From: Mobula hypostoma
Taxonomy: Eukaryota
DNA length: 64,000 nucleotides
NCBI RefSeq assembly: GCF_963921235.1
Contig: NC_086097.1
Location: forward strand, 76,882,001-76,946,000
Reading direction: 5' to 3'
In this document: one piece after another, positions 2,811-63,750 of the stretch
Position numbering within the stretch: the stretch's first letter is position 1
Layout of the letters: every line of letters begins with the position of its first letter
Notes under the pieces: model-generated
The model's database searches: none
What the model was told of the DNA's origin: nothing
Seen by the model: only the letters and a program-made list of their open reading frames with translations
Position numbers and translations under genes: made by a program

Positions 2811-4458
2811 TACAGTAATGCAGAAAGCTGGAGAATGCTCAAGCTGACTGTCCAATGCACTAGACAGGGGTGGGGGGGTGCTCTGCAGGAGGATCTATTT
2901 CTTGTCTGAGAAGGTAGTCTGAGCCCTTTCTACTCTGATGGGTGATGCAAAAGATGCAATAGCATTGTTGTAGATAAGAGCAGGTTTAATTTTCTGCCAA
3001 TTCCTTGCATAATTCTTTGGTCAAGACTTATTTGTACTCACTATATTTAATGTCAACAGGCTTTCACCAAAAAATGGGGAGTAATAGAGATGAACAGGTT
3101 TTAAGATGCAGAGAGAGGAGGGGATATAGAACTCAAAACTAAATTAAGATACAGGGGCTTATTTGTTACCGGTGCCAAAATAAATCTGACAACTCTCATT
3201 ATTACTTCCTCTTGTTCGTGATACAGGATTTACAGTGTACTGCCCTCCACAGACCAAACCTGCCCTGCCTACTCATCACGCACATTGGCCCACATTTTGT
3301 TCCTCAAATTCGATGACAACCGCCTCTCCAAATGCTCACCAAGAACCCTTCCCCACCTCCACAATCATGAGCTTGACATTAGCTACCCCTGTCCTTGCGA
3401 CAGACCCTTCCCCACACATCCACAATATGGTCACCCCAGGCTTCCCACTTCCATTGTGCCAATGCGCATTGTGCTTATCTCTCTCACCTCATACTAACAA
3501 CTGACATGTTCTTCTCCCCCGCCCCCAAAAAATGCTTGTGTTCAGTACATAGAGTGCCCCACCCACCCCTTGCTTACGATCTCCATCCTCACCTCAGATC
3601 ACCCTAGGGCTCACCAAGGACACTCTTACCATGTTCATCACTATATTTCCCTCAGACTCCACTCCTCCCTTCCCTGCCTCATGCTCAATGCAGGCCTACA
3701 CATCCCTGGTTTATCTCGTACCCACAATAATAGATTGCACTGTCCTCATGTTGTTTGCACAGGAAGAATTAAACGTCAAAAACCAACCTTAGCTCCTGGT
3801 AAACGCATTGTGTGTAGTGGAGGTTTCTGCATTTTATGTCTTATCACCCAGGGTCCATAGCAAGCTGATGAAAAAATGTTGTCTTTTCACTAAGCCAGAA
3901 TTCTTATTACGGTTGTCAAAACACTGTGGCTGTTTCTGATATTCAAAAATATTTCAATATTAATCAAGCATTTTAAATATCGAGGAATGTAAATGTTACA
4001 CAATGTAAGTACACTGGAAATGGCTTCAACATATATGAACACTTGTTTTTTTTTAAACCCCCACCCCAAGAATACAAACATATAACTTAATCCCTCTCTT
4101 CTGATGAATCATGTGCTGAGTCAAGCATCAGAACACAGAAGCTATGCAGGTTTGCACTCTAGTTGTAACATTGAGTCAGGCACATAATAGTAAGAACACC
4201 CTGGATCTTTCTGCAGTTTCTCCACAGTTAAATGATGTCTGATTTGCATATATGTTTTATTGATGTTGTTACTTCATAAGCAAGCAATGAACTGTTAGAG
4301 CATACTTCTGGTGGTAGCTTTAATTTATCAGTTTTTAAAATGTTGTGTCACTTTAAGCACATGTAATAAAGAGAGTTGTAAATTGTCAGTATGCCCCTAT
4401 ATCAACATTAATAAATAATGCCATGAGAAACTTATGTTGCTCTTGGTTTCTTACCCAG

Positions 4459-7500: not shown

Positions 7501-10500
7501 CATTGATTCTATTATGGTTATTATTTTATTATGGATTTATTGAGCATGCCCATAAGAAAATGAATCTCAGGGTTGCATATGGTGACATTTATATACTCTG
7601 ATAATAAGTATTCTTTGAACTTTGTCATTGACTAACTTGTTTCTAACCTGAACTAGGTGGAGGCAGCCAAATCTCTCTTATGCCTTATGATACCTTGACT
7701 GCCAAGGAGAAGGCCCGTGATCGTGATAAGGCTCATGAGCTGCTCAAGTTCCTCCAAGTGAATGGCTATGCAGTATCTAGGTAATGGATGAGCTTGATGG
7801 AACTTAGCAAGTGGGAGAATGGTATGCTCACTCATGACACTCAAAAAGTTAGGAAGTAGGTACAAGGAAAGTAACTAAGAAAGAAAGAGTGTTTTCCTTT
7901 TATTTCATTGGATAGTGAGCATGAAAGTGAGAAAGCCTCTTTATAACTGGACTATTGTGAGATTTAGGCTCCTGACTTAAAGAGTAATATATTTGCATTG
8001 GAGGCAGTTTAGAGACTGATCAACAGGTTGATTCCTGGTACAGAAGGATTGTCCTGTGAGGAAACATTTGTGAGCAATTTGTATGGATATGCATTTGAAT
8101 CAAAAGTAATAAGAGGTAATCTTCATGAAATACAAAAAGTCTTGAGGGTGATTGACGGATACTGAGATGTTGGATTCACTCAGGAATTTATAGCACATTT
8201 AAAGATCTACAACAAGATTGTTCAATTTGCAAGTTAGAAATTCACAAAGACTTAAATTGGTTCCTAGAACTAAATTACAGCTTTGAGATACTGAATTTAG
8301 ACATGGGACACAATCTCAGAATAAAGAAAGTTTATTTTTTGAGATTTGTGAATATTTGGAATTCTCCACCATTGAAAGCTGTAGAAGCTGAATCATTGAA
8401 TATATTCAAGACTGCAATTGATTTTTGATCTATAGAGAATTCAAGTGCTATGAGGAATGTGGATCTGAGGTCAAGTTCAGATCTTATGATTTTATTGAAA
8501 GGTATATGTGGCTGATTTCAGCTCCTATTTCTGAAGTCCTCATTATTACAGTCTCTAACCATGATGCAGGATGACACAGAAATTGCTAAGCCAATGTGAG
8601 AAGCTTCATGTTATGTATAGAATCAGAGTGGTGTTGAACAGTAATAATACATTGTTGAAGTTATCAGTATTAAACATTGTATGTCACAACACTTTGATCA
8701 TTATGCTATATTTTCAGAGGCTTGAAAGATATGGAATTGGATTCTTCTTCTTTTGAGAAACGATTTGCTTATAAATTCCTGGTAAGGGTGTTAAAATGTG
8801 TCGACACAGCTCAGGAATTTATAGCGCATTTAGGTAAGTGATTCTTCCTTCCCACTCACATTCAAACAGTTACTGCTTCTTTGTCTTTATTGTTACAGAC
8901 TACAACAGAAATACTCATTATTAAATTATTAATACACAAAGATTTATACCAGTTTAAACAACTGATTTACAACTCTGGGTCAATACTGTGTATGTAATGT
9001 TATGCAGGTCTGGGTCTTGTGGTGATCATGCCAGGCCCATACTTAAACCACATTGGCCAAATTCTCAGCTGTTCCAAAGGAGTTTTAAGTCTTCATCATG
9101 GATCCAGAGGAATACTCCTGTCCCTAAATCCACAAACAGATTGTATTTTTTAAAAAAAGGCAAATTAATGATTATTGAGAAAAATCAACCCTCTTAATTT
9201 CTTAAGAGGAAACTGAAAAGTCAGATTTTTCTCTGGCAATTCAATTTAAAACTGTAGTGTCTGATCTTGATGCTGAGAAAGGGTTCAGACTTGTACTTAC
9301 AGAAGGATCTGCTTACCACTTGTTACCTGGTTGTGGCAGTTGGTCACATTGGAAATCAGGCAGCTCGGGCAGATTTCAATTGCTTACCTATATTTTCCTG
9401 TGAGAACGTGGGTTAAGATTGTAGTCTCTCACCCCCCCCCCCACCCCCATCTTTACTTGGAAACTGTATGATCTGTGTCTCTAAACCAATTTCTGCATGT
9501 TGGCTTGTGTGCTTATTTCGAAATACTGAGTTTATGAAACATTGTTGAAGTTGAATTGCTGAGGCTATACTTTGGTATCAAATGATGTGCTATTACTGTA
9601 TTGCATGATTAGTGTTTGGAAAGTACCCCCCCCCCACCATGCTGGATTTTCCTCCATCTTCCTCCATCAACCGAAGGATCCAAATTCTATTTCATAATTA
9701 ATTTTTCACCAATTAAGTTACAGTTTGCATGAAAAATTAGTACATTTAAAAATATCAATGTTTGAGTAAGAAAATCACTCCTAAGAAAGATTTGATATCT
9801 AGATTTTTACCACGGCAGGATTACAATACACTCTGAGTTGAACAATTGTACTCGGGCGGTGGGTGCTATTCAAGCATAATCCACTTTGAAGTGATCCACT
9901 TTGAAGTGATCCACAGGAGCAAACCCAATCTCCCTTTCAATTAACATTTCACTTGTAGATGTAGCTAGTATACATAATGCCAAAACATGAACTGAGAAAC
10001 TCATCTGCTATTAAAAAAAAACTTTTTGAAGCATTTGACCTGATTCCTAAAAGGAGAAGCCCTCCTTCCTCCTTTCTTTGATAGATTCACAAATTGCCTA
10101 TTTGTTGGGAGCATATCCTTTTGAACTAATAGATGTCATTTATTTTATTTTTGAAGAGTTGGATCTCTATTTTATACATTTCAAAAGTTGTCTTAATCTG
10201 ATTTACTTGACTGTAACTGTTTAATTTCAGATTAATACCTTGCTGTGAGTGAACCATTTATTTTTGTATTGACAGAGGCCATTGTCAGTAGTGGTAAAGC
10301 AGACAAATCTCATGAGCAAGAGATAAAGTTTTTTGCCAAGGTACGTTATATTACAGGGGGTCGCTAAAGAAATTTCTGATTTCCCAAAAGAAATGTTGAA
10401 TTTATGGTGTTGGCAAAGCCTAGCAACTTGGCATGAATTCCTATTAATAAGTAGTATTCAATTACTCGAAAGGGAACATTAAACAAATATTTTAGTTTAA

Positions 10501-49500: not shown

Positions 49501-52500
49501 TCGGAGAGAATACTGTAAGCATTTTGACGAGACTATCATTTCAGAAACTTTGCTAATTGTTGGAGTATTGTGGACTAAGAACAAAACTCAAACAACCTTT
49601 GTATTTTTTTTGCTCACCATTCGATAGAATTTCAGACGGGAAGAGCAGAATTTTGTGATTCAGAATGAAATCAACAACATGGCTTTCCTGATTGCAGACA
49701 ATAAGAGCAAAATGTCCAAGGTAAATATCAATTACAGATTCCTTGAATTGCTACATATGTACCAGGATTAAATTTACTTATTTTCGAGCTAAGTTGTGTT
49801 AGGGTCTTGATAATGTTGATAAATGTACAGAACAGCAGAACTGAGGTAATTACAGATGCACGTTTGAAACTGTATTTCACACTGTAAGTATTTTTAAAAA
49901 TAATTCCACTTCATGTATCAAAAACTTAGAAGATAAAATATTTTTTTCACTTTATAACAATTGGTGAATTATTGATCTGGCAATGTTTCTGATCAAGGAT
50001 CATGGAGAAATGCCAACAAAGGAAATGGAATAGAAGATAAGTATTTGCTTTCCAAAACAGCTAAGCCAATGTAATTAATGTATTTAAATAAAAACAAGAG
50101 GATGCTGGAAGAACTTAGCTAGTCAGGCAGTATTTTTGGAGAAAGGAAAACAGAGTAACAACATTTCCTGTCAATAACCTTTCATCAGAACTGAAAATGT
50201 GAGAAAACAAGAGTGTTTTATTTTGCAGAAAACGTTTGAGTGTGGTGGGGTGCAGGATAGAGAGAATGGACAGAATGTCTGCAAAAGAGTAGGGACCAAA
50301 GTCGTTAAAGTAGCAATAACTTTAAATACTGGCGATTAGAGGCAGAAAAGAAAAGGAAGAAAGGAACAAATTGAAACTGAAACATTCAGCAATATCTGAA
50401 TGAAGAAATAAAAAGCTGGTTACTTCAAGTTCAGAATTGACTCCCGAGGGTTCCAGAAATACCCAAGGAAATTCCTGACTGATGTGTGGGATTTGTAGTT
50501 ATGAAGACATTGTCATCTCTGTTTGATAACTGGAGACATTGTCACCACTGTTTGATCATAGAAACATATTTCCTGAAGCATTACTCTTTTTTTATAGGGA
50601 CTGAATATTAAAGATATGAATCTGTATATTCATTGAATCAATATAGGAATATGCTCATAGAAAACAAAAGAGTTTGAAAAATAAACTAAGTTTAATTATT
50701 GGTAATTATTATTAATCAGGTCATCTTAAAAGAGAGAAACTCATTTTTTTTAAATTAACCACTATTTGGGTTTTAATAAAAGTCAGTTCCTTTCACATTT
50801 TCCCCCGGGATCAATGAAGTATGACTATGATTTTGACCCCAAGGAGAAATGAATCTGAAATTGAAGCTCTGCCTATCTGTACATTGGTCAGACTCTTCCA
50901 CAGAACAACAGAGCACAGGAACAGGCCCTTCAGCACACAACGTTTTGTGCAATTAATTGAACATGTGATTAAATGCCTACCTACAGAAAAATGAATCCCT
51001 TCTGCCTACACAATGTTCATGTCTCTCCACTTCCTTCACATTAATGTGCCTATCTAACAGCCTCTTCAATGTCTCTGTCATTATTTTCCTCTACTATTAA
51101 CTGTGACAGTGAATTCCAGGCACCCACAATTCTCTGTGGAAAGAAAATTCTAGCCCCACACGTCTCCTTTCAACTTACTCCCTCTTTACTTAAATGAAAG
51201 CACTCCATTTTAGACACTTCTCTCCTGGAATAAAGATGCTGACAGTTGACTTCATGTATGCCTCTCATAATCTTATAAACTTCTACCAGATCTCCCTTCT
51301 GCCTCCAGAAAAAAAAACAACCCAAATTTTTCTAACCTCTACTTATAGCTAAAGCCTTCTAACTCAGGCAGCATCCTGGTAAATCCCTTCTGCATCCTCT
51401 GCAAAGTCTCCACATCCTTTCGATAATAGAGCAACCAGAATTGAATGTACTACTCTAGATATCAATTGCTGGCTCCCGAACCTGATGCCTCAGCTAATAA
51501 ACACTAGCATGCCATCTTTACCACCCTGTCAACATGTGGAGCCATTTTCAGGGAACAATGGATTTGTATCCCCAAATCCCTCTTTACATCAACACTGTTA
51601 AGACCCTTGCCTTTTTTGTGCCCTTACAAACAAGGGAATATCTGCAGATGCTGGAAATCAAAATAATGAACACAAAATGCGAGAGGAACTCAGCAGGTCA
51701 GGCAGCGTCTTTGGAAGAGTAAACAGTCAATGTTTCAGGCCCAGCCCGAAACTTCGACTGATTACCATTTTTCACAGACGCTTCCTGGCCTATGGAGTTC
51801 CTCCAGCATTTTGTGTGTATCACTGTGCCTTTACAATTGGTTACCTAAAGAGCAACACCTCACACTTGGCTCCATTAAACTCCATCTGCCATCCCTCCTC
51901 CCATATCTGCAACTGATTTACATTCCGCTGTACCACTTGGCAATCATACATACTACCCACAATGCCACGACTCTTTGTATTATCTGTGAACTTACTAACC
52001 CACCATCCATGTTTTCATCCAAGCCATTTCTATATACATTAAACAACAGAGATTCCAGTAGGGATCCCCTTGGAACACCACTGGTCACAGAACTCTGGCC
52101 AGGATAAGTCTCATCAAATACCCGTCTCTGTCTTCCATGGGCAAGCCAATTCTGAATCCAAACAGCCAATTCACCATGGATTGCATACATTTCAGTCTTC
52201 TGGATGAGCCTACATGTGGGACCTTATCAAACACCTTAGTAAAATCTATGTAGACAATATCCATTGCTCCACCCTCATCACCTTCACAATTTTCTAAAAT
52301 ACAGTTCCTCAATCAAGTCGGTAGGACATCACTTACCCACACAAAGCCATGCTGACTGTCCCTAATTTGATTTTTCAAATGCTCATAATTACTATCCCAA
52401 AGAATCCTCTCCAATACTGACCATGAGATTCATCAGTTACAACATTAGATACTTTCCAGCCCTCCATGACCTCACCTGTAGCTAGAGAGGACACACACCA

Positions 52501-55500
52501 AGGCCTCTCTCAGAAATCTGGGGTATATTTAATCAGTAATAATGTTCTTCAAGAGACTCAGCCCTTTCTCTTCCTTAATCTCAAATACACTATCATATTA
52601 TCAGAGCCTATTATACTGATTCCACTGTCCGCCACTTCCTTCCTCGTGGTAAGTACCAACACAGACTACTCATTTAGGACCTTGCACATTTCCTTTGCTC
52701 TCATGTATATGTTTTCTCCTTTATCCTTGAGTCCGACCCTTTGCCTAGTTCTTGCTCTTAATAACTATAGAGTGCCTCGGGATTTGCTAAGAATTTTTCA
52801 TGGCCCTTCTTGTCTCGCTTAATTCCCTTCTTAATTTCTTTGCAGGCTTCTTTATAAACTTCAAGGGCCCTGATAACTTTAGCTTTCTAATCCTTACACA
52901 CACTTTTTTTCCTTCTTGATTAAATTCACCATCTATCTTGTAATCCAAAGATTCCTTACATTGTTGTCCTTGTTCCTCCTTCTGATTGGAGTGTAACACT
53001 CAGTTATATTGGCTGGTATATGTCTAGGGGAAATCCCACCCAGCACCTGCCTCAACGCCTCCCACGGAGTTGGTTGCCGCCCGAATCAAGCCCAAACATC
53101 AATCATCAGCCAGCACACCCAGTAAATTTTAACTAATTCTATGATGTTAATATAAATTCGATACAGAAAGGGAAGTAATGAAAAAAAAAAGGTGCCAACA
53201 CTTATCAAAGTCCAAGTACCCTTCAACTTGTCTGTCTTCTCTATCATCTTGCTCCTGCTGAAGTTCCCTTAAGGTCTTGCTGTAGTTACCTTCCTTTCAA
53301 TCCCTCCACTTACTGACCTGGTGATCTGGTTCCCATCCCCCTGTCAAACTAGTTTAAACTCCCCCAAGCAGCACCTGCAAACCTCCTCACCAGGATATTG
53401 GTTCCCCTCCAGTTAAGGAACAACCAGTCCCTCTTGTGCAGGTTGCTCCTTCCTCAGAAGAAATTCCAATGGTCCAAAAAACTGAAACTTTACCCCTTGC
53501 ACCAGTTCTTCAGCTGTATAATCATTTGTTCTATTGTTCTATTCCTGCCCCAATAATAATTAGAGACTGGGACTAATCAATAGATTACTACCTTTTGGGC
53601 TCCTCCTTTTCTCTTTTTCTTTCCTTAGTCCCCATATTTACTGCACAGAACTTTGTCCCCTTTACTACCTATGTTCTTGATGACAATGTGTACCACAACC
53701 TCTGGTTGCTCACCCTCCACTTGGGAATGTTCTACAGTCGCTCTGAGACAGCTTGACCTTGGCATCTGGGATGTAACACACCATCCTGATATCTCTTTTA
53801 CACCTGTAGAATCTCCTGTCTGTTCCCCTTAACGATCGTCTCTCCTTTCACAGATAGCCTTCCTGACTTCGCTTTTCCCTACTGGTCCTCAGAACCAACT
53901 ACAAAAGTCTCCCAAGTTAACACAAAATTGGATTTCTTACTGACAATGTTTTTTATAAATTGGAAAAAAGAAGAGTGGTAATTTAAACCAATGTTTTGTT
54001 GAGGTTGTTTAACATGTTAAAGCATGTTACTGTCTTTAACATGTTAAAGCATGTTACTGTCAGTTCTTTCTTTATTCTACAAATGGTAATGGTGCAAAGA
54101 GAAAAAGTTTCATTTCCAAGTGTTTACATCTCACCTTTTGGGCAAAAAAATCAAATCACTGAAATGGTAAATGTGCATTTAGAATCCCACAGTTTAATAT
54201 TTTATATTAATTAACAGCACTAAAATGGAAACCTACGTAAAGCACTTTGATCTTTTTTTGCTTTTGACAGATCAACACTAATGGTTAAAACATATGAAAT
54301 CTATTCATTTTTGAATTATCTGATGTTTTAACATATTACTAATGTTTTTTGTATTTATTTTCTCCCTTGCCGTTCCTCCCTTTCAAAGCGATGTAAGCAA
54401 GTTGGCCTTAAGGTCAGATTGCATGATAGCATCATCATGCAAAAGGCTGCACAACAGACCTGGCGACTTAAGGTTTTTTTTAAAATGACCACACTCATAG
54501 CATATGCAGTTGTCTGGAAGCTGTACTGTGCTCATTGTCTGAAACCTCTGTAGAAGACTAACTGTGCTTTCCATAAATTGTCCAGCTTCTGAAAAGTATG
54601 TGTAAAAATCAGCTCTCAAAGCATAGCTTTTGCATAGGGTAAATCGAGGCTAATGAGCAACAAGTGACAAAGCCCACAGTCCAAAGATATACTGGGTAGG
54701 CTAATTGGTCATGGTAAATTGTTCCGTGATTAGGTTAGGATTGATCAGGGTCGTGGGGTTGCTGGGGTTGCTGGGGCAGTGTGGCTTGAAAGGCTGCAAG
54801 GGCCTACGCTGCACTGCGTCGCTAAATAAGTAAATTCATTTATATGGTTCATTGAACTTTAGCAGAATTGGGAGATTGGATTTCTCTCCTAAACTCAACA
54901 GTTCTTTTTCATTGCTCTGTGGTAAATGTGAGGGTAATATTTTAGTCAGGATTTAGATTCACTGGACTGAAGGTATAGATCCTTATTTCTCTAGAAATTA
55001 TGTTGTATACTACATGTTTTAGACCCTTAGCTATAAAACAGGGCAATGTCATTAAAGGATATTGGATTAAAGGTTTAAGCACTTTTCCATCTAACATAAT
55101 ATATCCATTATTGAAATGTTCTCAAGTGTAAAGATTAGCATGATTTTAATGGATTATCAGATCATCATCAGATTAAGACAGGACAAAGTTTAACATTTCA
55201 TGTAATGTTCAAATGCTTTAAAAAGAGACTAATTTCCTCTTTGTTAATCTGAAGTGATTTATTATTCAATTTGACTGTGGCAGCTATCATTGCCAGCTTG
55301 GATCCCCCGGGCTGCCAAGAGAGCTGAAGTTCAGCATCTGAATGGTGGAAAGAATTGACCCAACTTGCCTGATGGGAATAGGGTGAACATCCAATGAAAG
55401 TGATCATGCAAATTATTAATCACACTACAGCATCTTGTTTTCCAAACTAGCCCTCACTTTAAACGGCCACTTGGTTAGATTTAAAAAGTGGGTTTTCAGC

Positions 55501-58500
55501 TCATTATTCCTGTACTGACTGTATATTGAGGCCTACTTATCTCCCACTTCTCAAAGATCTGGATTCTTTACCCTCTTCTCACTTGAAAGCCACCATTGAA
55601 TCTGCTTCCATACCTCTTATCAATGTACAGTATTCCATATCCCAACAAAAGAAGTGAGTGTTCATAGTTCACTTGCCAATCACTTGCCTAGTTCAAGTCA
55701 CTACCTCATTAATACGAGCAGTGTGGGGTACACTAGTGACTCAGTAAGTGCTTCAACTTTGTACACTCGCTTTCTGTCATCTACAATGAGGAAGATAGTA
55801 ACAGAATACAGAATCAGAATTGGAAAGACACCAACGCAAGGAATTCAGGGAAATGGCAATATGGAAAATTAGGCCTGTAACTGAATTTGATGATCGACCA
55901 CAATCCTATCAAATAGTGTTGCCAGCTCGAGGGGTAGATAATTTCCTTCTGCTGCTACTTATTATGTTCTTTCTTGGGCTGGTGAAATGAACAAACATAT
56001 AGCATGAATTTTACTGCAGGGAAATGAGAAATTGTAGCTTGGTAAGAAGAAGGATGCAATATGAACCCAGAGTGGTTATTTTATAGACAAAGGAAGGAGA
56101 AACTCTTGCTGTAACAAGACCATCAGCAATCAGAGACCACATGAGCCAGAAACACCAAAGGACATTGTATAATAACCTAAGCTGCTCTAGAATGCATTGT
56201 CTAAAAGTCTGGTAGAAATTAATTCAATAGTAATAATTGAAAAAGAAATTGCATGAATATAAGAAAAAAGTGAGGACTGTTGGGGGAAAAATTGGACTGA
56301 ACAGTCTTCTAAACATTAATATAATAGAAGAGAAATAATCTAAACGACTGTCCTGAATGAGGTGTCAATCTGTGGTTTATAATACAATACATTGCAGCCC
56401 TGAAGCACTTCTTTAAGAAAATAGTTTGTAACAGCAAATTTGACTGTAGAAAGAGCAACATAATACATTTTATTGGATGGTTGATTTGTTTCTTTATCAA
56501 AGTGTAGTAAAGCTTAAAGCTGCAACAAGATTCAAGATTCTTTAATGTAAGGAGCCTTAATGTAATTGCACAGCTTTAATGTAATTCTTTAATGTAATTG
56601 CACAGCTACACTTATATTAAGCTAAGAGAGGCTGAGAGTTGATATCATTGAAATCAAAGCCAGTGTGCATCTAACCCATCATAAGCACAGCTTAGCAAAA
56701 CATTCCATTTGCATCATCATCTTTGTGTTACTTGTACTGGCAATGCATTTTCTTGTATCATATTCAATTTACCTTTGTGTGCGTGCGTAAATATGTGTTG
56801 GGGCAGTATTATTAATTAAATACTTTCCTTTTGTATTAGCTGACATGAAAATTAAATGATTGAGTGAAAATATGGTTGGTTACCTTATAATTTGTACAAA
56901 ACCACATTGTTTTTCTTCAATGATCATTCTGTGCGGTACTGTGTTTGTCTCACAGCCTGCACAGTTAATACTGCAAGCAGTTCCAGTTTATTATATTAAA
57001 GAGGTGTGGTGTCAAATTATCCTGAACTACAAGAGCTAACTGTTCACAAAGCATTCAATGGCCATCAGCACTTTGTAACGTAGTAAAGAAGTGATATTCT
57101 AGCCTCTCAGTGGTACAGTGGTTCTCAGCATTTTCTAACAATTACTCTGGAGCATGTGCATAAAAGCTTTCAGCTTCAGAATGATTTAAAATCTGCCAAG
57201 AACACTGGTGTGCTAAATAAGGTTTCATTTTTAAATCTCACAGTTGAATGATATACACATTGAGAGAGGAATGAGGCATTATATTATTGAAATGAATAGG
57301 ATTTGACAGGATATATAGTGTGAAGATCTTTCCCTCATATAGGGATATAGAAACAGGGCATAAAATTTCATAAGGGTTGCCTATTTAAGACAGTAATGAT
57401 GAGGAATCTTTTGGAATTGCCTCTTCCAAATAATTGCAAACATTAATTCATTAATATATTTAAAGCTGAGTAGATGGATAATTCAACCCGGTGAGTTGGA
57501 GATCCTGCAGAACAGGCAGGAGAGTGGATTTGGGGCCAAGATCAGATCAACTTTTATCTGTTGAAGCAGACTTGAGAGGACTCCTTCATTATGTGCTTGT
57601 TCTTGATCCATAGTTGCTGCGATGTGAAGCAAACCAACATGATAGCTTACATTCGCAAACACGAGGAAATCTGCAGATGCTGGAATTTCCAGCAAGATAG
57701 CTAATATTACTGTATATAAAAAAAATCTTCTGGTAAATTGCATAATATAGAACTGATACACAGTATGTATGATAAGAGCAATGTTTAGATCCTTGGCTTA
57801 TAATGAATTAGTTAATATTGTAAATAAACAATTACATGTAAACGAACAGGGCCAGTTTCAGGGACCAATAGTTTGGAGTGTATGTTGTATAGTAGATAAC
57901 AAGTAAGAGAGATCTTACTTTTAAACGCCCCTTGAGTCAAATAGCTTACCAGTATTCCATTTCGAAACTTGCTTAGAAAGAACGGCTCATCAGTTGAGCA
58001 AACACCACATTTCATACTTTTAGATCCAAATGCTAGCTTTATAACACCTTCAGGGATGAAAAGGAAGCTTTTGAGCAGGTGGAAAGATGTGCTGGATTTG
58101 AAATTCTGTGTCAGCTTTGTATGTAATTGGAGTTCAGAACATGGGATATCCCATGGAACATGGGATATGTTACCATATCATATGTCAGTACTACACAACA
58201 TTCATTAAACAGCATAACCTATTTAAATACTTGAAATAAGCATTCATACAAAATACTGCATTGTCATAAACAATTTAATTTATTTCAGGCAGAGGGAGAT
58301 AACCAGGAACGGAAAAAAATTAAGCGCAGAGGTGACTATTACTCGATACATACATCACTGATTGTGGCAGCTGTTAAAAAGTTACTTCCTATTGGTTTAA
58401 ATATGTGCACAGCAGGAGACCAGGAATTAATCTCATTGGCCAAGCAGAGGTACAGTCTGGTAAGTTTCCAGTATTTTTCTTAAGTATTGTCTCTCGTAAA

Positions 58501-61500: not shown

Positions 61501-63750
61501 TTGGTGCATCAATGGTATGTGAGCTTTATCCACTGTATGTAATAACGGTACAGAACTAAATTTGAGAGCATTTTACTGCATCCCTGGGCAAATAAGTCTG
61601 TAAGTTATTTATGGATAGATTTGCACAAAAATTGACATTTTGTGAGTTTTTATTAGGATTCATTCCCTTCAGACCAAAATCTAATGGAAAGGTTTAATGT
61701 GTGTGAAGAAATTACACTTAGTTCTTTTTCCAATTATATTCAGCTGCTTTAAGAAACCGTTAACATAATAAATGTTGATAACAAAAAAAGTCCTGAGCAT
61801 AATAATCAATTCTCCAATGACACAGATTCTGGAGAAAACAACGCAACTGATTGAATAAAGTTTTTGACCATTTACATTGGTAATAGTCATATTGTAGTTG
61901 GAATCTATCGTACTATTTGTTTTTTGTAACTTCATAAATTAATCAAAAGAAAAACGCGGGCCCAGGAGAATGTGTATGCTTCATTTTTTTTACATAGTGA
62001 GGGATGCAATATATGATGTGGTGATGTGATGACGTACACCACTCACGTACTTCTTACATAAAACCCACAATGAATTATGTTATCAGCAAGGAATGCTTAA
62101 TCAAACAATATACAATATTTACAATATTACTCAAATTTTACTGAAATATTAAATACACTTTGTTATCTAGTTCATTAGCTTGTATCTTCATTGAGAGTAC
62201 CAGGAAGAAGTGCTTGTAAAGCTTTAAAGTGACAAGAACCTCTTGCATGTGAACCAATATTAACCTCAGTGTAATATAAATAGAGGTAACATTTAAAAGA
62301 ACCATCCTGCTCTGCACCAACAGAATGACATTGATCACTCCTTTCATTGGCAGTTGCTTGCCGTGTTTTTGAGGGTTCCATGGGGTACCTGTGAATGCTG
62401 TGAGCACCATTGAGCTTCTTAAATAAAATTCAACAGTCATTAGATAGCAGAGAACATAAATAAAATTCAAACAAGCTTCAGAAATCAAAATGTGGACTTT
62501 AAAGCAGTAATTATCATTAATGTATCTTTTAAAATTCAATTTGCTCTCGAATGCAGTAGTCATACGTTCTGAGTTCTTTTAGTGGAAGACTTGAGATGAA
62601 ATATCCCAAGCACCTTCCTTAACACAATGCATTCTTGTAGAAGAGCAAGGTTTTTCTGAGAACCCTTGAAATTCCCACATGGGGCTGTATATATGTATAA
62701 GCCAAGGATTGCTGTCAGACTCCATTGCAATGAGCACATTCTGAAAGCTTGTACATTAGGATGTGTTCCTTTATCCCAGAATTTTCTAGTCAATCCACAT
62801 TTTATTAATGGCATGCATTGTTTTTCCAGTAAATCGGAACCAATATTAAGGAAGTAAATATGTTTTTTTAAGGTGGAGCAGCCATTGCGGTCAAAGAAGA
62901 CAGGGTGGCATAAACTTATGTCCAAACAACGCAAACGAGCTGTGGTTGCCTGCTTCCGGATGGCACCACTTTATAACCTTCCCAGGTAGAAGTAATGCTG
63001 TGTTTTGCATGTAAAGAAGAAAATTATATTTAAACAATCATTTCTATTTATTCTTTATCTCACTTAGCTACTTTCTTGAATTTTATTTTCCAGTTCAAAG
63101 TTGTTTTTTGATAAAGCTGTTGATATATTAACAATCACTCCCAAACTTCATTTCCAAGCTTCAGCTTCCAAGCTGCATGCACTGTTCCAGAAGAATACTG
63201 GAACTCTCTACCATTTGGACTAGAACATCTACAGTAATTTTCCCTGTTAGCATTTCTTCTTCCTTTCTTGTAAGAGAGTACCTCATTTCAATTTGGAGCC
63301 CCAGTTCTGCTTAGGGTTGGGGCAAGAATGTCAAGTCAGAAATCACAGTGCAAACCTATACCTTTTAAGTTCCCTAACTTCACTTGACAAGCTACATTTA
63401 TATTTAATTAACGAAGTTTATGAAGCCAGTCAAAAATCATGTCTGTTGATCACGCTTTACAGAATATATATGCAGTTTTGTCTTTGGCAATCAATAATGT
63501 ACATGCTTAAGAAAAACCATTTTAATGCAATGAACTAGTTGCAGAAACCATGCTTTAATTCACACTACATGGAGAATTATCCCACAGATAATTTAGAAAA
63601 ATCTGTGCTTTTAAATTGATCAATGCAAAACATGTATCCCTTTTCTTTAGACACAAAATTAACATTTACTTCCTGAACGCCTATCAACATCTGTGGCTGG
63701 AAAAACTATATAAGAAAACTGACTTTGAGAATCTTATCGTCTGTTTGGCG
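4459..63750 (+). CDS. RYR3: Ryanodine receptor 3, internal part of gene (19 coding exons, 2379 nt / 793 aa spliced; incomplete at both ends)
   Basis: Exons below join with GT-AG sites and matching phases into one open frame. Peptides such as YKFL...[43 protein letters not shown] and EQPLRSKK match RyR3 better than RyR1/RyR2 as I recall them. Confidence 0.93.
5092..6172 (+). mobile_element. Penelope-like element (Neptune type), 5'-truncated: GIY-YIG region + 3' pLTR
   Basis: [24 protein letters not shown]; ~10-bp TSD cttgcataat (5082-5091 / 6173-6182); highly similar to 24220-25280. Confidence 0.9.
6075..6110 (+). ncRNA. Minimal hammerhead ribozyme motif in PLE pLTR
   Basis: AGTC-CTGACGA-A-GGGT CTCA GCCC-GAAA-T-GTC-GACT. 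Confidence 0.7.
6712..7624 (+). mobile_element. Rex/Babar-type LINE 3' end, degenerate
   Basis: [11 protein letters not shown]...[21 protein letters not shown] motifs; 3' UTR ending aataag...tttgaactttg. Confidence 0.8.
7657..7780 (+). CDS. RYR3: RYR3 exon (124 nt, phase 1-2): [41 protein letters not shown](R)
   Basis: aactag| ... |gtaatg; [10 protein letters not shown] motif. Confidence 0.95.
7880..8540 (+). mobile_element. Old CR1 LINE fragment
   Basis: Degenerate ALEAVQR / RG.L.ETYK / WNSLP coding traces and CR1 3' UTR. Confidence 0.55.
8718..8833 (+). CDS. RYR3: RYR3 exon (116 nt, phase 2-1): [38 protein letters not shown](E)
   Basis: ttttcag| ... |gtaagt; EKRFAY and AQEFIAHL motifs. 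Confidence 0.95.
9879..9914. repeat. 15-bp tandem duplication (atccactttgaagtg) x2.4
   Basis: Read directly. Confidence 0.9.
10276..10340 (+). CDS. RYR3: RYR3 exon (65 nt, phase 1-0): [22 protein letters not shown]
   Basis: gacag| ... |gtacgt; QEIKFFAK motif. Confidence 0.95.
10828..12085 (+). mobile_element. CR1 LINE RT 3' half, nested inside an older minus-strand CR1 tail (10717-10815 / 12086-12129)
   Basis: [46 protein letters not shown]. Confidence 0.93.
11610..11757 (+). mobile_element. Severely 5'-truncated tail of the (ctatga)n-tailed LINE family inserted into CR1
   Basis: TSD aagata (11604-11609 / 11758-11763); matches the 3' UTR of 34180-35135; internal ~32-bp tandem duplication. 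Confidence 0.85.
12130..12222 (-). mobile_element. PLE pLTR 3' fragment with degenerate hammerhead
   Basis: Reverse complement ctgatgaagagtctcagcctgaaacatcaact...gctgcctggcctgctg. Confidence 0.8.
12236..14420 (-). mobile_element. Rex1/Babar-type LINE (end of EN + RT), frameshifted, (ttcaa)n tail
   Basis: Minus-strand ORFs [58 protein letters not shown]. Confidence 0.92.
14800..15200 (-). mobile_element. Possible ancient L2/Crack-like LINE C-terminal remnant
   Basis: Minus-strand traces LHLHHFF... and [14 protein letters not shown] resemble the non-LTR RT C-terminus. Confidence 0.3.
15509..16023. mobile_element. PIF/Harbinger (Tourist-like) MITE, 515 bp
   Basis: Imperfect TIRs AGGCT(C/G)AT.T.TACTTGTGCGTCAACT; TTA target duplication at 15506-15508 and 16024-16026; CpG-rich. 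Confidence 0.88.
16550..16671 (+). CDS. RYR3: RYR3 exon (122 nt, phase 0-2): [40 protein letters not shown](S)
   Basis: ctttcccag| ... AG|gttggc (weak donor, but phase fits the next exon); ASNKEKEM motif. Confidence 0.92.
16848..16976 (-). mobile_element. PLE pLTR 3' end, young subfamily, truncated within the hammerhead core
   Basis: Near-identical to the reverse complement of 25188-25281, plus full tail. Confidence 0.88.
17420..17469 (+). CDS. RYR3: RYR3 exon (50 nt, phase 2-1): [16 protein letters not shown](G)
   Basis: ctgatctag| ... |gtaagc; [11 protein letters not shown] motif. Confidence 0.95.
18571..18631 (+). CDS. RYR3: RYR3 exon (61 nt, phase 1-2): [20 protein letters not shown](R)
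   Basis: ttctatag| ... AG|gtatct. Confidence 0.95.
18774..19012 (+). CDS. RYR3: RYR3 exon (239 nt, phase 2-1): [27 protein letters not shown]...QHQFGTDLI(L)
   Basis: ttccag| ... |gtgagt; follows a 142-nt intron. Confidence 0.96.
19128..19860 (-). mobile_element. Degenerate Rex/Babar-type LINE 3' end
   Basis: Reverse-complement traces of [10 protein letters not shown] and a typical 3' UTR (ctgaacctggcggtgtgggacttcaggct). Confidence 0.6.
20065..21296 (+). mobile_element. Penelope-like element, older subfamily, GIY-YIG region + pLTR
   Basis: [33 protein letters not shown]; degenerate hammerhead at 21162-21197. Confidence 0.88.
21302..21627. mobile_element. Pair of inverted ~65-75-bp Tc1/mariner-like palindromic mini-elements (21302-21374 and 21563-21627)
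   Basis: Ends resemble CAGTACTGTGCAAAAGTC..AGGCA; the two units are near reverse complements. Confidence 0.6.
22068..22685. mobile_element. Fold-back PLE insertion: minus pLTR arm 22068-~22425, plus arm ~22428-22685
   Basis: 14-bp TSD gagatcYtgaaatg (22054-22067 / 22686-22699); both arms carry mutated hammerheads (22128-22163, 22555-22587). Confidence 0.9.
22862..24889 (+). CDS. PLE polyprotein (reverse transcriptase + GIY-YIG endonuclease), ~675 open codons, no start codon (5'-truncated; first ATG at 23528)
   Basis: [75 protein letters not shown]; frame is continuous from 22862. Confidence 0.92.
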   Translation, partial: GKDSSTPTDDPFSRLQPSSSSWTPRSGLLPALDLFIANCRRDINRLDFTAPCPHSNLTPSERSALHSLRTNPNLIIKPADKGGAVVVWRTDLYLAEAQRQLADTSSYLPLDRDPTKEHQAIVSHTINDFIRSGDLPSIATNLIVPTPRTSRFYLLPKIHKPACPGRPIVSACSCPTELVSAYLDTVLSPLVQSLPTYVRDTSHALKLFDDFKFPGPHRFIFTMDVQSLYTSIPHQEGLKALRFFLDSRPNQFPSTTTLLRLAELVLTLNNFSFCSSHFLQTKGVAMGTRMGPSYACLFVGFVEQSMFRAYSGICPPLFLRYIDDCIGAASCTHAELVDFINFASNFHPALKFTWSISDTSLPFLDLSVSVSGDSLSTDIYYKPTDSHSYLDYSSSHPVSCKNAIPFSQFLRLRRICSQDEAFHSRTREMSSFFKERGFPSSTINSALKRISSISRTSALTPSSHHPTRNRVPLVLTYHPTSLRVQHIILRNFRHLQRDPTTKHIFPSPPLSAFRRDRSLHNSLVHSSPPSLPTDLPPGTYPCKRNKCYTCPYTSSLTTIQGPKQSFQVRHHFTCESTGVIYCVRCSRCGLLYIGETRRRLGDRFAEHLRSVRQRKQDLPVATHFNSTSHSHSDMSIHGLLYCKDEATLRLEEQHLIFRLGSLQPDGMNIDFSNFR
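25183..25218 (+). ncRNA. Minimal hammerhead ribozyme motif with intact core (predicted GUC cleavage after 25214)
   Basis: AGTC-CTGACGA-AGGGTCTCGGCCT-GAAA-C-GTC-GACT; stem I AGTC/GACT; palindromic ACGT stem III. Confidence 0.8.
27140..27221 (+). CDS. RYR3: RYR3 exon (82 nt, phase 1-2): [27 protein letters not shown](R)
   Basis: tgtttacag| ... AG|gtaact. Confidence 0.95.
27257..27490 (-). mobile_element. V-SINE (HE1-like tRNA-derived SINE)
   Basis: tctttggactgtgggaggaaactggagcacc is the reverse complement of the V-domain; (ttta/tttg)n tail. Confidence 0.8.
28157..28951 (-). mobile_element. CR1 LINE 3' portion
   Basis: [42 protein letters not shown]. Confidence 0.92.
30080..30470 (-). mobile_element. 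Degenerate CR1 3' fragment
   Basis: agagtcatagagc tail and CR1 C-terminal traces. Confidence 0.55.
30488..31236 (-). mobile_element. Rex/Babar-type LINE 3' end
   Basis: [36 protein letters not shown]. Confidence 0.75.
31237..32040 (-). mobile_element. Rex/Babar-type LINE 3' end with (tctgat)n tail
   Basis: (aatcag)n at 31236-31259; KELMVNFR..., [14 protein letters not shown]. Confidence 0.78.
32045..32478 (+). mobile_element. CR1 LINE 3' end
   Basis: [27 protein letters not shown] and 3' UTR ending ttatggttttat. Confidence 0.88.
32480..33470 (-). mobile_element. CR1 LINE RT fragment, degenerate
   Basis: [19 protein letters not shown]. Confidence 0.75.
34020..34112 (+). mobile_element. Short PLE-related pLTR fragment, divergent family, with hammerhead-like motif (34020-34056)
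   Basis: AGTC-CTGATGA-A-GGGTC ACA GACCC-GAAA-C-GTG-GGCT. Confidence 0.7.
34180..35135 (-). mobile_element. Rex1/Babar-type LINE 3' portion with (ctatga)n tail
   Basis: ORF 34274-35116: [43 protein letters not shown]. Confidence 0.92.
35400..35900 (+). mobile_element. PLE 3' end / pLTR, degenerate hammerhead at 35779-35814
   Basis: [20 protein letters not shown]. Confidence 0.85.
38299..39265 (-). mobile_element. Rex1/Babar-type LINE RT 3' portion with (tctgat)n tail
   Basis: [50 protein letters not shown]. Confidence 0.92.
39368..40168 (-). mobile_element. Penelope-like element GIY-YIG region + pLTR
   Basis: [33 protein letters not shown]; degenerate hammerhead at 39462-39497. Confidence 0.9.
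40726..40856 (+). CDS. RYR3: RYR3 exon (131 nt, phase 2-1): [43 protein letters not shown](I)
   Basis: ttgtttag| ... |gtaagt; [11 protein letters not shown] motif. Confidence 0.95.
42460..43329. mobile_element. Fold-back PLE insertion: minus arm 42460-~42978, plus arm ~42979-43329
   Basis: 13-bp TSD aagttaatYagta (42447-42459 / 43330-43342). Confidence 0.9.
42555..42590 (-). ncRNA. Minimal hammerhead ribozyme motif, consensus-perfect copy
   Basis: Reverse complement AGTC-CTGACGA-A-GGGT CTCG GCCC-GAAA-C-GTC-GACT. Confidence 0.8.
43855..44533 (-). mobile_element. Rex1/Babar-type LINE 3' end, (ctatga)n family
   Basis: Near-identical to 34180-34850. Confidence 0.92.
45641..45770 (+). mobile_element. 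PLE pLTR 3' fragment ending 30 nt upstream of a RYR3 acceptor
   Basis: tgatgaagggtctctggccgaaacatcgactg...ctgcagaatctcttgtgttt. Confidence 0.8.
45800..46114 (+). CDS. RYR3: RYR3 exon (315 nt, phase 1-1): [19 protein letters not shown]...[12 protein letters not shown]...[10 protein letters not shown](V)
   Basis: ctttgttag| ... G|gtaaaa; lies within ORF 45793-46146. Confidence 0.97.
47191..47431 (+). CDS. RYR3: RYR3 exon (241 nt, phase 1-2): [30 protein letters not shown]...[19 protein letters not shown](R)
   Basis: ttctccag| ... AG|gtaaga. Confidence 0.97.
48085..48315 (+). mobile_element. LINE 3' UTR remnant (same type as 7330-7624) containing an (att)n microsatellite
   Basis: Similarity to 7330-7624; (tta)n at 48153-48184. 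Confidence 0.65.
48375..48462 (+). CDS. RYR3: RYR3 exon (88 nt, phase 2-0): [29 protein letters not shown]
   Basis: tttttctag| ... |gtaagg. Confidence 0.96.
49628..49720 (+). CDS. RYR3: RYR3 exon (93 nt, phase 0-0): [31 protein letters not shown]
   Basis: cgatag| ... AAG|gtaaat; REEQNFV motif. Confidence 0.96.
50095..50250 (-). mobile_element. Old PLE-related pLTR fragment (similar relics at ~4560-4660, ~21660-21750, ~29980-30055)
   Basis: atgctggaa...tcaggcagtat...; reverse complement cagttctgatgaaaggtt...gaaatgtt. Confidence 0.55.
50905..53830 (-). mobile_element. Long degenerate CR1 LINE with internal deletions and insertions
   Basis: [37 protein letters not shown]. Confidence 0.8.
51630..51823. 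mobile_element. Miniature fold-back PLE insertion inside CR1
   Basis: Two inverted pLTR 3' ends fused within the hammerhead stem II (~51740); 13-bp TSD tgtgccYttacaa (51617-51629 / 51824-51836). Confidence 0.8.
54008..54061. repeat. Perfect 27-bp tandem duplication (tttaacatgttaaagcatgttactgtc) x2
   Basis: Read directly; each unit contains the 14-bp palindrome TTTAACATGTTAAA and GCATG. Confidence 0.92.
54389..54412 (+). CDS. RYR3: Candidate alternative microexon (24 nt, phase 0-0): RCKQVGLK, at the ASI position
   Basis: Branch-like TACTAAT (54337), long polypyrimidine tract with TGC, aag| acceptor, AAG|gtcaga donor, TGCATG 8 nt downstream; in frame with no stop. Confidence 0.5.
54673..54836 (+). 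mobile_element. V-SINE 3' portion
   Basis: cccacagtccaaaga...taattggtcatggtaaattg...gggcct...ctaaataa; same family as 27257-27490. Confidence 0.75.
56540..56607. repeat. Compound short tandem repeat built on ttaatgtaa(ttgcacagct)
   Basis: Four copies of ttaatgtaa, two followed by ttgcacagct. Confidence 0.8.
57657..57693 (-). mobile_element. Isolated PLE 3' tail (~36 nt)
   Basis: aaacacgaggaaatctgcagatgctggaatttccagca matches the extreme pLTR end at 42459-42496. Confidence 0.7.
58289..58459 (+). CDS. RYR3: RYR3 exon (171 nt, phase 0-0): [57 protein letters not shown]
   Basis: tatttcag| ... |gtaagt; KRRGD and LPIGLN motifs. Confidence 0.96.
58850..58909 (+). CDS. RYR3: RYR3 exon (60 nt, phase 0-0): [20 protein letters not shown]
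   Basis: catcaacag| ... AAG|gtagga. Confidence 0.95.
59040..59622 (-). mobile_element. Rex1/Babar-type LINE 3' end, (ctatga)n family
   Basis: Near-identical to 34180-34800 and 43855-44485. Confidence 0.92.
60897..61028 (+). CDS. RYR3: RYR3 exon (132 nt, phase 0-0): [44 protein letters not shown]
   Basis: attcag| ... CAG|gtaacc. Confidence 0.96.
62010..62158 (-). mobile_element. Possible LTR fragment
   Basis: Reverse complement begins TGTATTTAATATTTCAGTAA..., TG-started LTR-like sequence. Confidence 0.3.
62873..62985 (+). CDS. RYR3: RYR3 exon (113 nt, phase 0-2), calmodulin-binding site CaMBD2: [37 protein letters not shown](R)
   Basis: ttttttaag| ... AG|gtagaa; [18 protein letters not shown] motif. 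Confidence 0.96.
63651..63750 (+). CDS. RYR3: RYR3 exon (100 nt, phase 2-0): [33 protein letters not shown], probably one of a mutually exclusive pair
   Basis: ttttctttag| ... |gtaaag; phase fits; resembles the HKIN..FL...Q..WLEK...KT RyR3 splice variant. Confidence 0.85.

Follow-up and report, generated by a model that had tools for sequence, protein, structure and literature searches.

In this study, which was based on a comparison of a 64,000-nucleotide stretch of DNA (the whole of it is called the window here) with RyR proteins, structures and assembled contigs, we found that positions 54389-54412 very probably form a real cassette microexon of RYR3, whose default state is skipping and which in elasmobranchs corresponds to the 15-nt RYR3 exon that bony vertebrates have at the position of the RyR1 ASI. 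As a modest variation on a splice switch that is already known, it is not a new kind of element. Its eight-residue form appears to be common to elasmobranch lineages and is annotated already in RefSeq models of one shark.

Host gene and splice junction

Sequence comparison identifies the gene in the window as a cartilaginous-fish RYR3. Its 18 mapped exons gave a single open frame of 759 aa, which was 80% identical to a bird RyR3 and 71% to a bird RyR1, and among the matches in the PDB mink RyR3 was the best with 80.9 bits, followed by RyR2 (70.4) and RyR1 (64.7). The window protein shared 90.5-91.6% identity with six shark RyR3 sequences, which were 92.6-99.7% identical among themselves, and in a tree that had no RyR2 row it was grouped with these six at 100/100; its placement outside these galeomorph sharks had a weaker support of 93/92. 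The exon at 10276-10340 lacks the Pro of KSPHEQ that is present in the bamboo shark and in bony vertebrates, and the basking-shark models align with the window at this exon without a gap.

The junction of interest lies between two exons whose facing ends were confirmed by spliced contigs (here and below, a slash in a splice site marks the end of the exon):

49628..49720, + strand: upstream RYR3 exon, ending in ...KSKMSK with the donor AAG/GTAAAT, phase 0; 3' end confirmed by spliced contigs
58289..58459, + strand: downstream RYR3 exon, carrying the polybasic motif and starting in phase 0; start confirmed by spliced contigs

The upstream exon aligned with residues 3450-3480 of rabbit RyR1 and 3305-3335 of mink RyR3, and in the alignment the downstream exon began at RyR1 residue 3486. 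In sections of PMC4510890, the ASI is given as A3481-Q3485 of RyR1, just ahead of the polybasic motif. Because the exons on either side correspond to RyR1 3450-3480 and to the sequence from 3486 on, the intron between 49720 and 58289 is the one that holds the ASI, which agrees with the RyR ASI splice position that had been named in the initial annotation. At the equivalent junction of RyR2, the insert was absent, and mink RyR3 9C1E, the sole RyR3 sequence in the PDB copy that was searched, represented the skipped form.

The 24-nt exon and its splice signals

The following features were recognised around the exon; the roles of the QKI-type and RBFOX-type motifs are putative:

54271..54386, + strand: AG-free zone of 116 nt, read from the letters; 12-83 nt at the gene's 18 ordinary acceptors
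54277..54282, + strand: ACTAAT, distal branch-like or QKI-type motif with a putative function
54337..54343, + strand: TACTAAT, likely to hold the branch point, 45 nt ahead of the AG; putatively also a QKI-type motif
54360..54384, + strand: pyrimidine tract with TCTC (54361) and TGC (54368); pyrimidine fraction of 0.91 at -25..-4
54386..54388, + strand: AAG acceptor, the first AG past the branch point; its use agrees with the eight-residue shark insert
54389..54412, + strand: cassette microexon of 24 nt, CGATGTAAGCAAGTTGGCCTTAAG, encoding RCKQVGLK; XP_072425165.1 and XP_072425171.1 have QCKQVGLK at this junction
54393..54398, + strand: rival donor GTAAGC (GAT/GTAAGC, 4-nt exon), for which a stop would follow after 11 nt of the next exon; overlaps the rival AG at 54396-97
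54413..54418, + strand: moderate donor GTCAGA (AAG/GTCAGA), 7/11 consensus matches compared with 9/11 for the flanking exons
54420..54425, + strand: TGCATG at +8, a motif of the RBFOX type with a putative function; 0.09 occurrences expected per 373 nt
54557..54562, + strand: ACTAAC, downstream QKI-type motif at +145 with a putative function

These positions bear out all of what had been read from the letters in the initial annotation, in which the 116-nt AG-free zone, TACTAAT at 54337, TGCATG at 54420, a pyrimidine tract with a TGC shortly before the AG, an RCKQVGLK exon of 24 nt in phase 0-0 with the donor GTCAGA, and a competing GTAAGC donor at 54393 that leads to a 4-nt frameshifting exon were all described; the upstream exon ends at 49720 and the downstream exon starts at 58289, both in phase 0. 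Sixteen nucleotides separate the end of the TGC at 54368 from the AG at 54387-88. The AAG acceptor, the second AG at 54396 and the three ACTAAY motifs had gone unremarked there. This second AG (54396-97) is in frame and would give a 15-nt exon encoding QVGLK.

The length of the AG-free zone alone is not decisive because 11 of the 4056 AG-to-AG gaps on the plus strand of the window were at least 116 nt; this zone was the second longest in the intron. ACTAAY occurred three times (54277, 54338 and 54557) against 0.19 expected in 373 nt, with a Poisson P of ~0.001 for a segment that was picked post hoc. Of the 18 ordinary acceptors in this gene, one is likewise AAG, and in a small matrix built from the gene itself the microexon acceptor scored under all 18. 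At 62870-62873, an ordinary RYR3 exon uses an AAG acceptor, so the rare type works in this gene.

A rule scan was also made, in which an AG-free zone, a pyrimidine tract, a branch motif, an in-frame and stop-free length of 3-51 nt and the donor score were combined. With an AG-free zone of at least 40 and a pyrimidine fraction of at least 0.7, thresholds that were chosen with the candidate known, 54389-54412 was the sole match on both strands, and the loosest setting returned five intronic matches on the plus strand and one on the minus strand. A 30-nt rival exon at 51349 was rejected, as it lies in repeat-rich DNA and agrees with no isoform. At 54455-54478, a second CTTAAG/GT, located 60 nt past the exon end with a CAG ahead of it, would frame a 15-nt TWRLK exon; this site resembles the 3' end of the exon, its donor is poor (GTTTTT) and it has no pyrimidine tract.

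Shark isoforms and the reality of the exon

A search with a caecilian region that was picked by local ranking reached a shark RyR3 cluster of 55 sequences, the 15 listed members of which were examined. The insert was found in two of these 15 isoforms, while 13 skip it, and both carriers were RefSeq predicted models of one species, the bamboo shark Chiloscyllium punctatum: isoforms X1 (XP_072425165.1) and X6 (XP_072425171.1), which read KSKMSK-QCKQVGLK-AEGQGQERKK. Deleting the eight residues from them yields exactly isoforms X3 and X7. Alternative RefSeq models of such a kind are usually built on aligned RNA reads. The conservation in another chondrichthyan, which had been named beforehand as a test, was thus found in two models. 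The microexon is therefore frame-preserving and optional, with the skipped form seen in RNA-like contigs and both included and skipped models in the bamboo shark.

RCKQVGLK and QCKQVGLK are identical at 7/8 residues, the first being Arg in the window and Gln in the bamboo shark. This level is in line with that of the flanking exons because these match the bamboo shark at 29/31 and 54/57 residues. A length, a frame and a sequence that were kept over a protein distance of 9% would be hard to explain as plain intron DNA. In the two lineages compared, the Cys and two Lys are conserved and the Arg is not. The earlier description of three added basic residues consequently holds for the window lineage but not for the bamboo shark, in which the Arg is a Gln. 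Similarly, the form had been described as a lineage-specific version of eight residues; it is indeed longer than the five-residue insert of bony vertebrates and has a Cys, but it is common to elasmobranch lineages.

Other searches returned negative results. With the downstream exon as the protein query (27 matches and 142 matches), no cartilaginous-fish sequence was reached, none was present among the 120 listed of 1700 matches to a rat region, and a 22-nt pattern search of metagenome contigs gave no match. When a search weighted with a divergent scaffold was simulated, fragments were misaligned and 17-51 bits were gained, and for these reasons the approach was abandoned. The bamboo-shark RyR3 (P0337) isoforms also differ elsewhere, by a basic 22-residue insert near the N-terminus (93-114), by an apparent mutually exclusive exon pair (3545-3575) and by an optional piece of six residues (3756-3762), all of which fall outside the mapped part of the window.

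Skipping in assembled contigs

In contig sets X1, X4 and X14, which came from three studies, 49720 was joined directly to 58289 in 3/3. These sets are RNA-like, with an RNA status that was guessed or off record and no tissue labels, and they were drawn from the four listed of 18 runs. The depths of the skipping contigs were 44, 12.1 and 4.7, respectively; the best-covered set, X1, gave a 13.9-kb RYR3 contig with zero differences from the two flanking exons of the window. The depths of the bins in the downstream exon equalled the share of a single contig, which excludes a second contig at this exon. Inclusion was seen in none of the contigs of the three sets and 54344-54642 had no cover in them, which is not proof of silence. 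Because contigs drop minor forms, these sets show that skipping is dominant in those samples and not that inclusion is absent.

In a DNA contig of a close relative, the stretch 54043-54489 had 17/444 differences compared with 4.5% in the rest of the intron (P=0.63), and by this whole-contig difference count no extra conservation was found around the microexon. An exact 27-nt tandem duplication lies at 54008-54061; the alignment of the relative's contig ends at 54043 with 60 letters over, so the duplication may be recent. A high-copy repeat with 58-nt inverted arms (51627-51827) and a truncated second copy of it (57656-57695) reached extreme depths in both DNA runs and RNA-like ones.

The insert across vertebrate RyR proteins

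Among 210 RyR proteins of more than 2000 aa, 185 could be parsed at the junction and 25 could not; 118 of the parsed proteins skip the insert and 67 carry one. The AMQVK insert that had been given for mammalian RyR3 in the initial annotation was recovered (P0011), and the five-residue inserts of amniotes were AMQVK in 15 cases, AMHVK in nine and AMEVK in one. Inserts of the same length were PMQVK and PIQVK in frogs, TVHVK in the lungfish, SLQVK in the coelacanth, SMLLK in the bichir, SMHLK in the gar, SLSVK in the sturgeon and SYLGK in a mormyrid. The eight-residue form was found in the shark alone among the 185 parsed proteins. Taken together with its position, by which its orthology is judged, the best interpretation of the exon is that elasmobranchs have their own version of a long-standing RYR3 microexon. 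A back-translated likeness to A-M-Q-V-K, one base off frame and unique in the window, was given no weight because it is a post hoc pattern and because in basal bony fishes the first residue of the exon is Ser or Thr.

Further variation was observed at this junction. A seven-residue form, i.e., a five-residue insert followed by VQ, occurs in coelacanth and paddlefish RyR3 (P0290, P0299 and isoforms), and the addition of VQ in both suggests that a conserved second donor may lie 6 nt downstream. In six amniote RyR3 models from a turtle, pigeon, snake, lizards and opossum (P0296, P0301, P0289, P0294, P0300 and P0305), a QIARRGM-type sequence and an AMQVK-type sequence make up a 12-residue insert, which could be due either to a second microexon or to an acceptor 21 nt upstream. 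Five inserts at the junction resemble intron read-through. P0246 is a very divergent full-length RyR with ~55% identity to vertebrate RyR3 and a long branch.

Proposed regulation and alternative explanations

A downstream UGCAUG is bound by RBFOX, by which inclusion is enhanced. In the available text of 10.1101/2024.09.17.613571, a UGC between the branch point and the AG is reported for 74-79% of SRRM3/4 microexons, and responses to SRRM3/4 are described as conserved from shark to mammals. According to parts of PMC13004596, an upstream UACUAAY is tied to skipping in muscle through QKI, a downstream one is tied to inclusion in muscle, and QKI is absent from most neurons. In the initial annotation, the UGC was taken as a mark of SRRM3/4; a TGC is present, but it is not diagnostic because 7/18 ordinary acceptors of the window RYR3 also carry TGC within 25 nt of the AG. 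The mechanism that we propose is that the exon would be weak by design, with its AAG acceptor, a branch point 45 nt off and a moderate donor, and would need helper factors. In muscle, QKI would block the two upstream ACUAAU elements, and in neurons without nuclear QKI, SRRM3/4 acting at UCUC..UGC with the aid of RBFOX at +8 would turn the exon on. Such a circuit, off in muscle and on in neurons, is the most likely pattern, and we give it about an even chance in view of two ACTAAY copies before the exon and one after it; the ACTAAC and TGCATG on the downstream side are equally compatible with inclusion in muscle.

No RYR3 exon was named in the supplements of PMC12626424 (12 files), PMC7935315 (17/19), PMC7821500 (8), PMC9303857 (12/18 files), PMC8187152 (3/4) and PMC12868881 (1). 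Microexons and their shark orthologues are listed in the supplement of 10.1101/2024.09.17.613571, which may be relevant here. In the open-licence literature, no paper on the window exon, the bamboo-shark isoforms or the splicing of shark RyR3 was found. In file 10 of PMC7935315, HsaEX0056077 and HsaEX0056073 have a neuronal rise of +47 and +33 PSI; their numbering is where RYR2/RYR3 events might fall, and being given without a gene or coordinates they are a lead only.

The regulatory step alone has a rival in which the same 24-nt exon is switched on in maturing muscle or heart, like the RyR1 ASI, through the downstream RBFOX and QKI motifs. We regard this as possible, with the remaining chance left to other patterns: ASI(+) is described as the adult form of RyR1 in sections of PMC4510890, a downstream UACUAAY is the arrangement linked to muscle inclusion in parts of PMC13004596, and here TGCATG stands at +8 and ACTAAC at +145, while UGC is common at ordinary acceptors. 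However, two ACTAAT motifs upstream are set against one ACTAAC downstream, and the best-covered RNA-like set, X1, skips the exon (it has no tissue label). The skipping in 3/3 RNA-like sets would also be expected if the exon, functional in some sharks, were silent or nearly silent in the window lineage and represented a decaying remnant, as would the weak AAG acceptor, which is below all 18 ordinary ones in the small own-gene matrix, and the close relative's lack of excess conservation. Yet the frame, the length, both splice sites and 7/8 residues were kept across a split with a protein difference of ~9%, and we consider decay improbable.

Two further explanations concern the boundaries of the exon. 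If this species used the second AG, the 15-nt form at 54398-54412 (QVGLK) would be in frame and stop-free, would have the length of the ASI, AMQVK and the other five-residue inserts of bony vertebrates, and would end in LK as do SMLLK of the bichir and SMHLK of the gar. Against this stand an AG-free zone of 7 nt, an acceptor score of -5.6 compared with -2.9 and the fact that no five-residue QVGLK insert was found in any parsed protein, which make the short form very improbable. The locus could instead be mainly a poison exon that lowers the RYR3 message by nonsense-mediated decay, either through the GAT/GTAAGC donor (4 nt) or through a third AG (11 nt), as the frameshifts of these forms lead to stops in the following exon, after 11 and 70 nt, and the 4-nt donor equals the main donor in its consensus match (7/11 each). 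In the own-gene donor matrix, though, it scores 1.1 compared with 2.8 for the main donor, no such joint was present among the 15 listed of 460 joints, and amino-acid conservation over all 24 nt argues for coding use; we therefore consider this explanation extremely improbable. The 24-nt form is favoured over both the 15-nt acceptor and the 4-nt donor because the bamboo-shark models carry eight residues.

Protein effect and significance

The 24-nt exon would add eight residues, without a new domain, to a length-tolerant linker just ahead of the polybasic motif. Across vertebrates, this linker takes 0 to 12 residues, so the insert would act as a spacer-type tuning element. In the text seen of PMC4510890, the RyR1 ASI alters activation by the beta1a subunit and agonists, probably via an inter-domain contact that involves the polybasic motif. 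By analogy, the elasmobranch RYR3 insert may have an ASI-like effect on the channel, i.e., it may tune an inter-domain contact and hence the sensitivity of the channel to activators. The switch at this junction probably dates to the jawed-vertebrate ancestor, because an optional RYR3 microexon is present in both cartilaginous and bony fishes, and it may share its origin with the RyR1 ASI. The natural inserts, which are acidic in RyR1 but basic in RyR3 and comprise 0, 5, 7, 8 or 12 residues, offer a ready test of length versus charge at the linker.

A more far-reaching scenario is that the ancestral 15-nt exon used the AG at 54396 and that elasmobranchs lengthened it by a shift of the acceptor by 9 nt in the upstream direction, thereby gaining a conserved Cys-Lys beside the polybasic motif. 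This would form a thiol switch, through redox or lipid modification, whose addition to RyR3 by splicing would be confined to certain cells (probably neurons) by a toggle between QKI and SRRM3/4. We consider this scenario doubtful.

Comparison with known systems

The window exon resembles the QCKQVGLK insert of Chiloscyllium punctatum isoforms X1 and X6, which has the identical junction, eight residues and 7/8 of them the same, and differs in a first Gln instead of Arg. With the 15-nt RYR3 microexon of bony vertebrates it has in common the gene, the intron, phase 0, a Lys at the end and its optional nature, as included and skipped forms both exist among the bony-vertebrate models as well. The insert of the latter, however, has five residues, whereas the elasmobranch exon encodes eight with a Cys and an extra Lys, and there is little sequence identity apart from the last Lys.

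The RyR1 ASI occupies the paralogous junction just before the polybasic motif, as described in sections of PMC4510890, but it belongs to another paralogue and has five residues compared with the 24 nt and eight residues of the window exon. In the retrieved bird and snake RyR1, the ASI is acidic (SGDGQ and SEESQ), while the window insert is basic, and the effect of the ASI on the channel has been measured, whereas that of RCKQVGLK is an analogy only.

Compared with the SRRM3/4 neural microexons, which are characterised in the available text of 10.1101/2024.09.17.613571 by 3-27 nt, frame preservation, a distant branch point and a UGC, the window exon has a length of 24 nt, which is within that range, a branch A 45 nt from the AG and a TGC at 54368 of a kind that ordinary acceptors of the gene also have (7/18). 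Strong donors are stressed in the same text, whereas the window donor is moderate and the QKI-type motifs hint at a further layer. In the QKI-repressed exon 11 of RAI14, a pair of ACUAAC motifs, 34 and 43 nt away from its acceptor, is given in parts of PMC13004596; in the window, the two upstream ACTAAT motifs are 61 nt apart and end in T instead of C.
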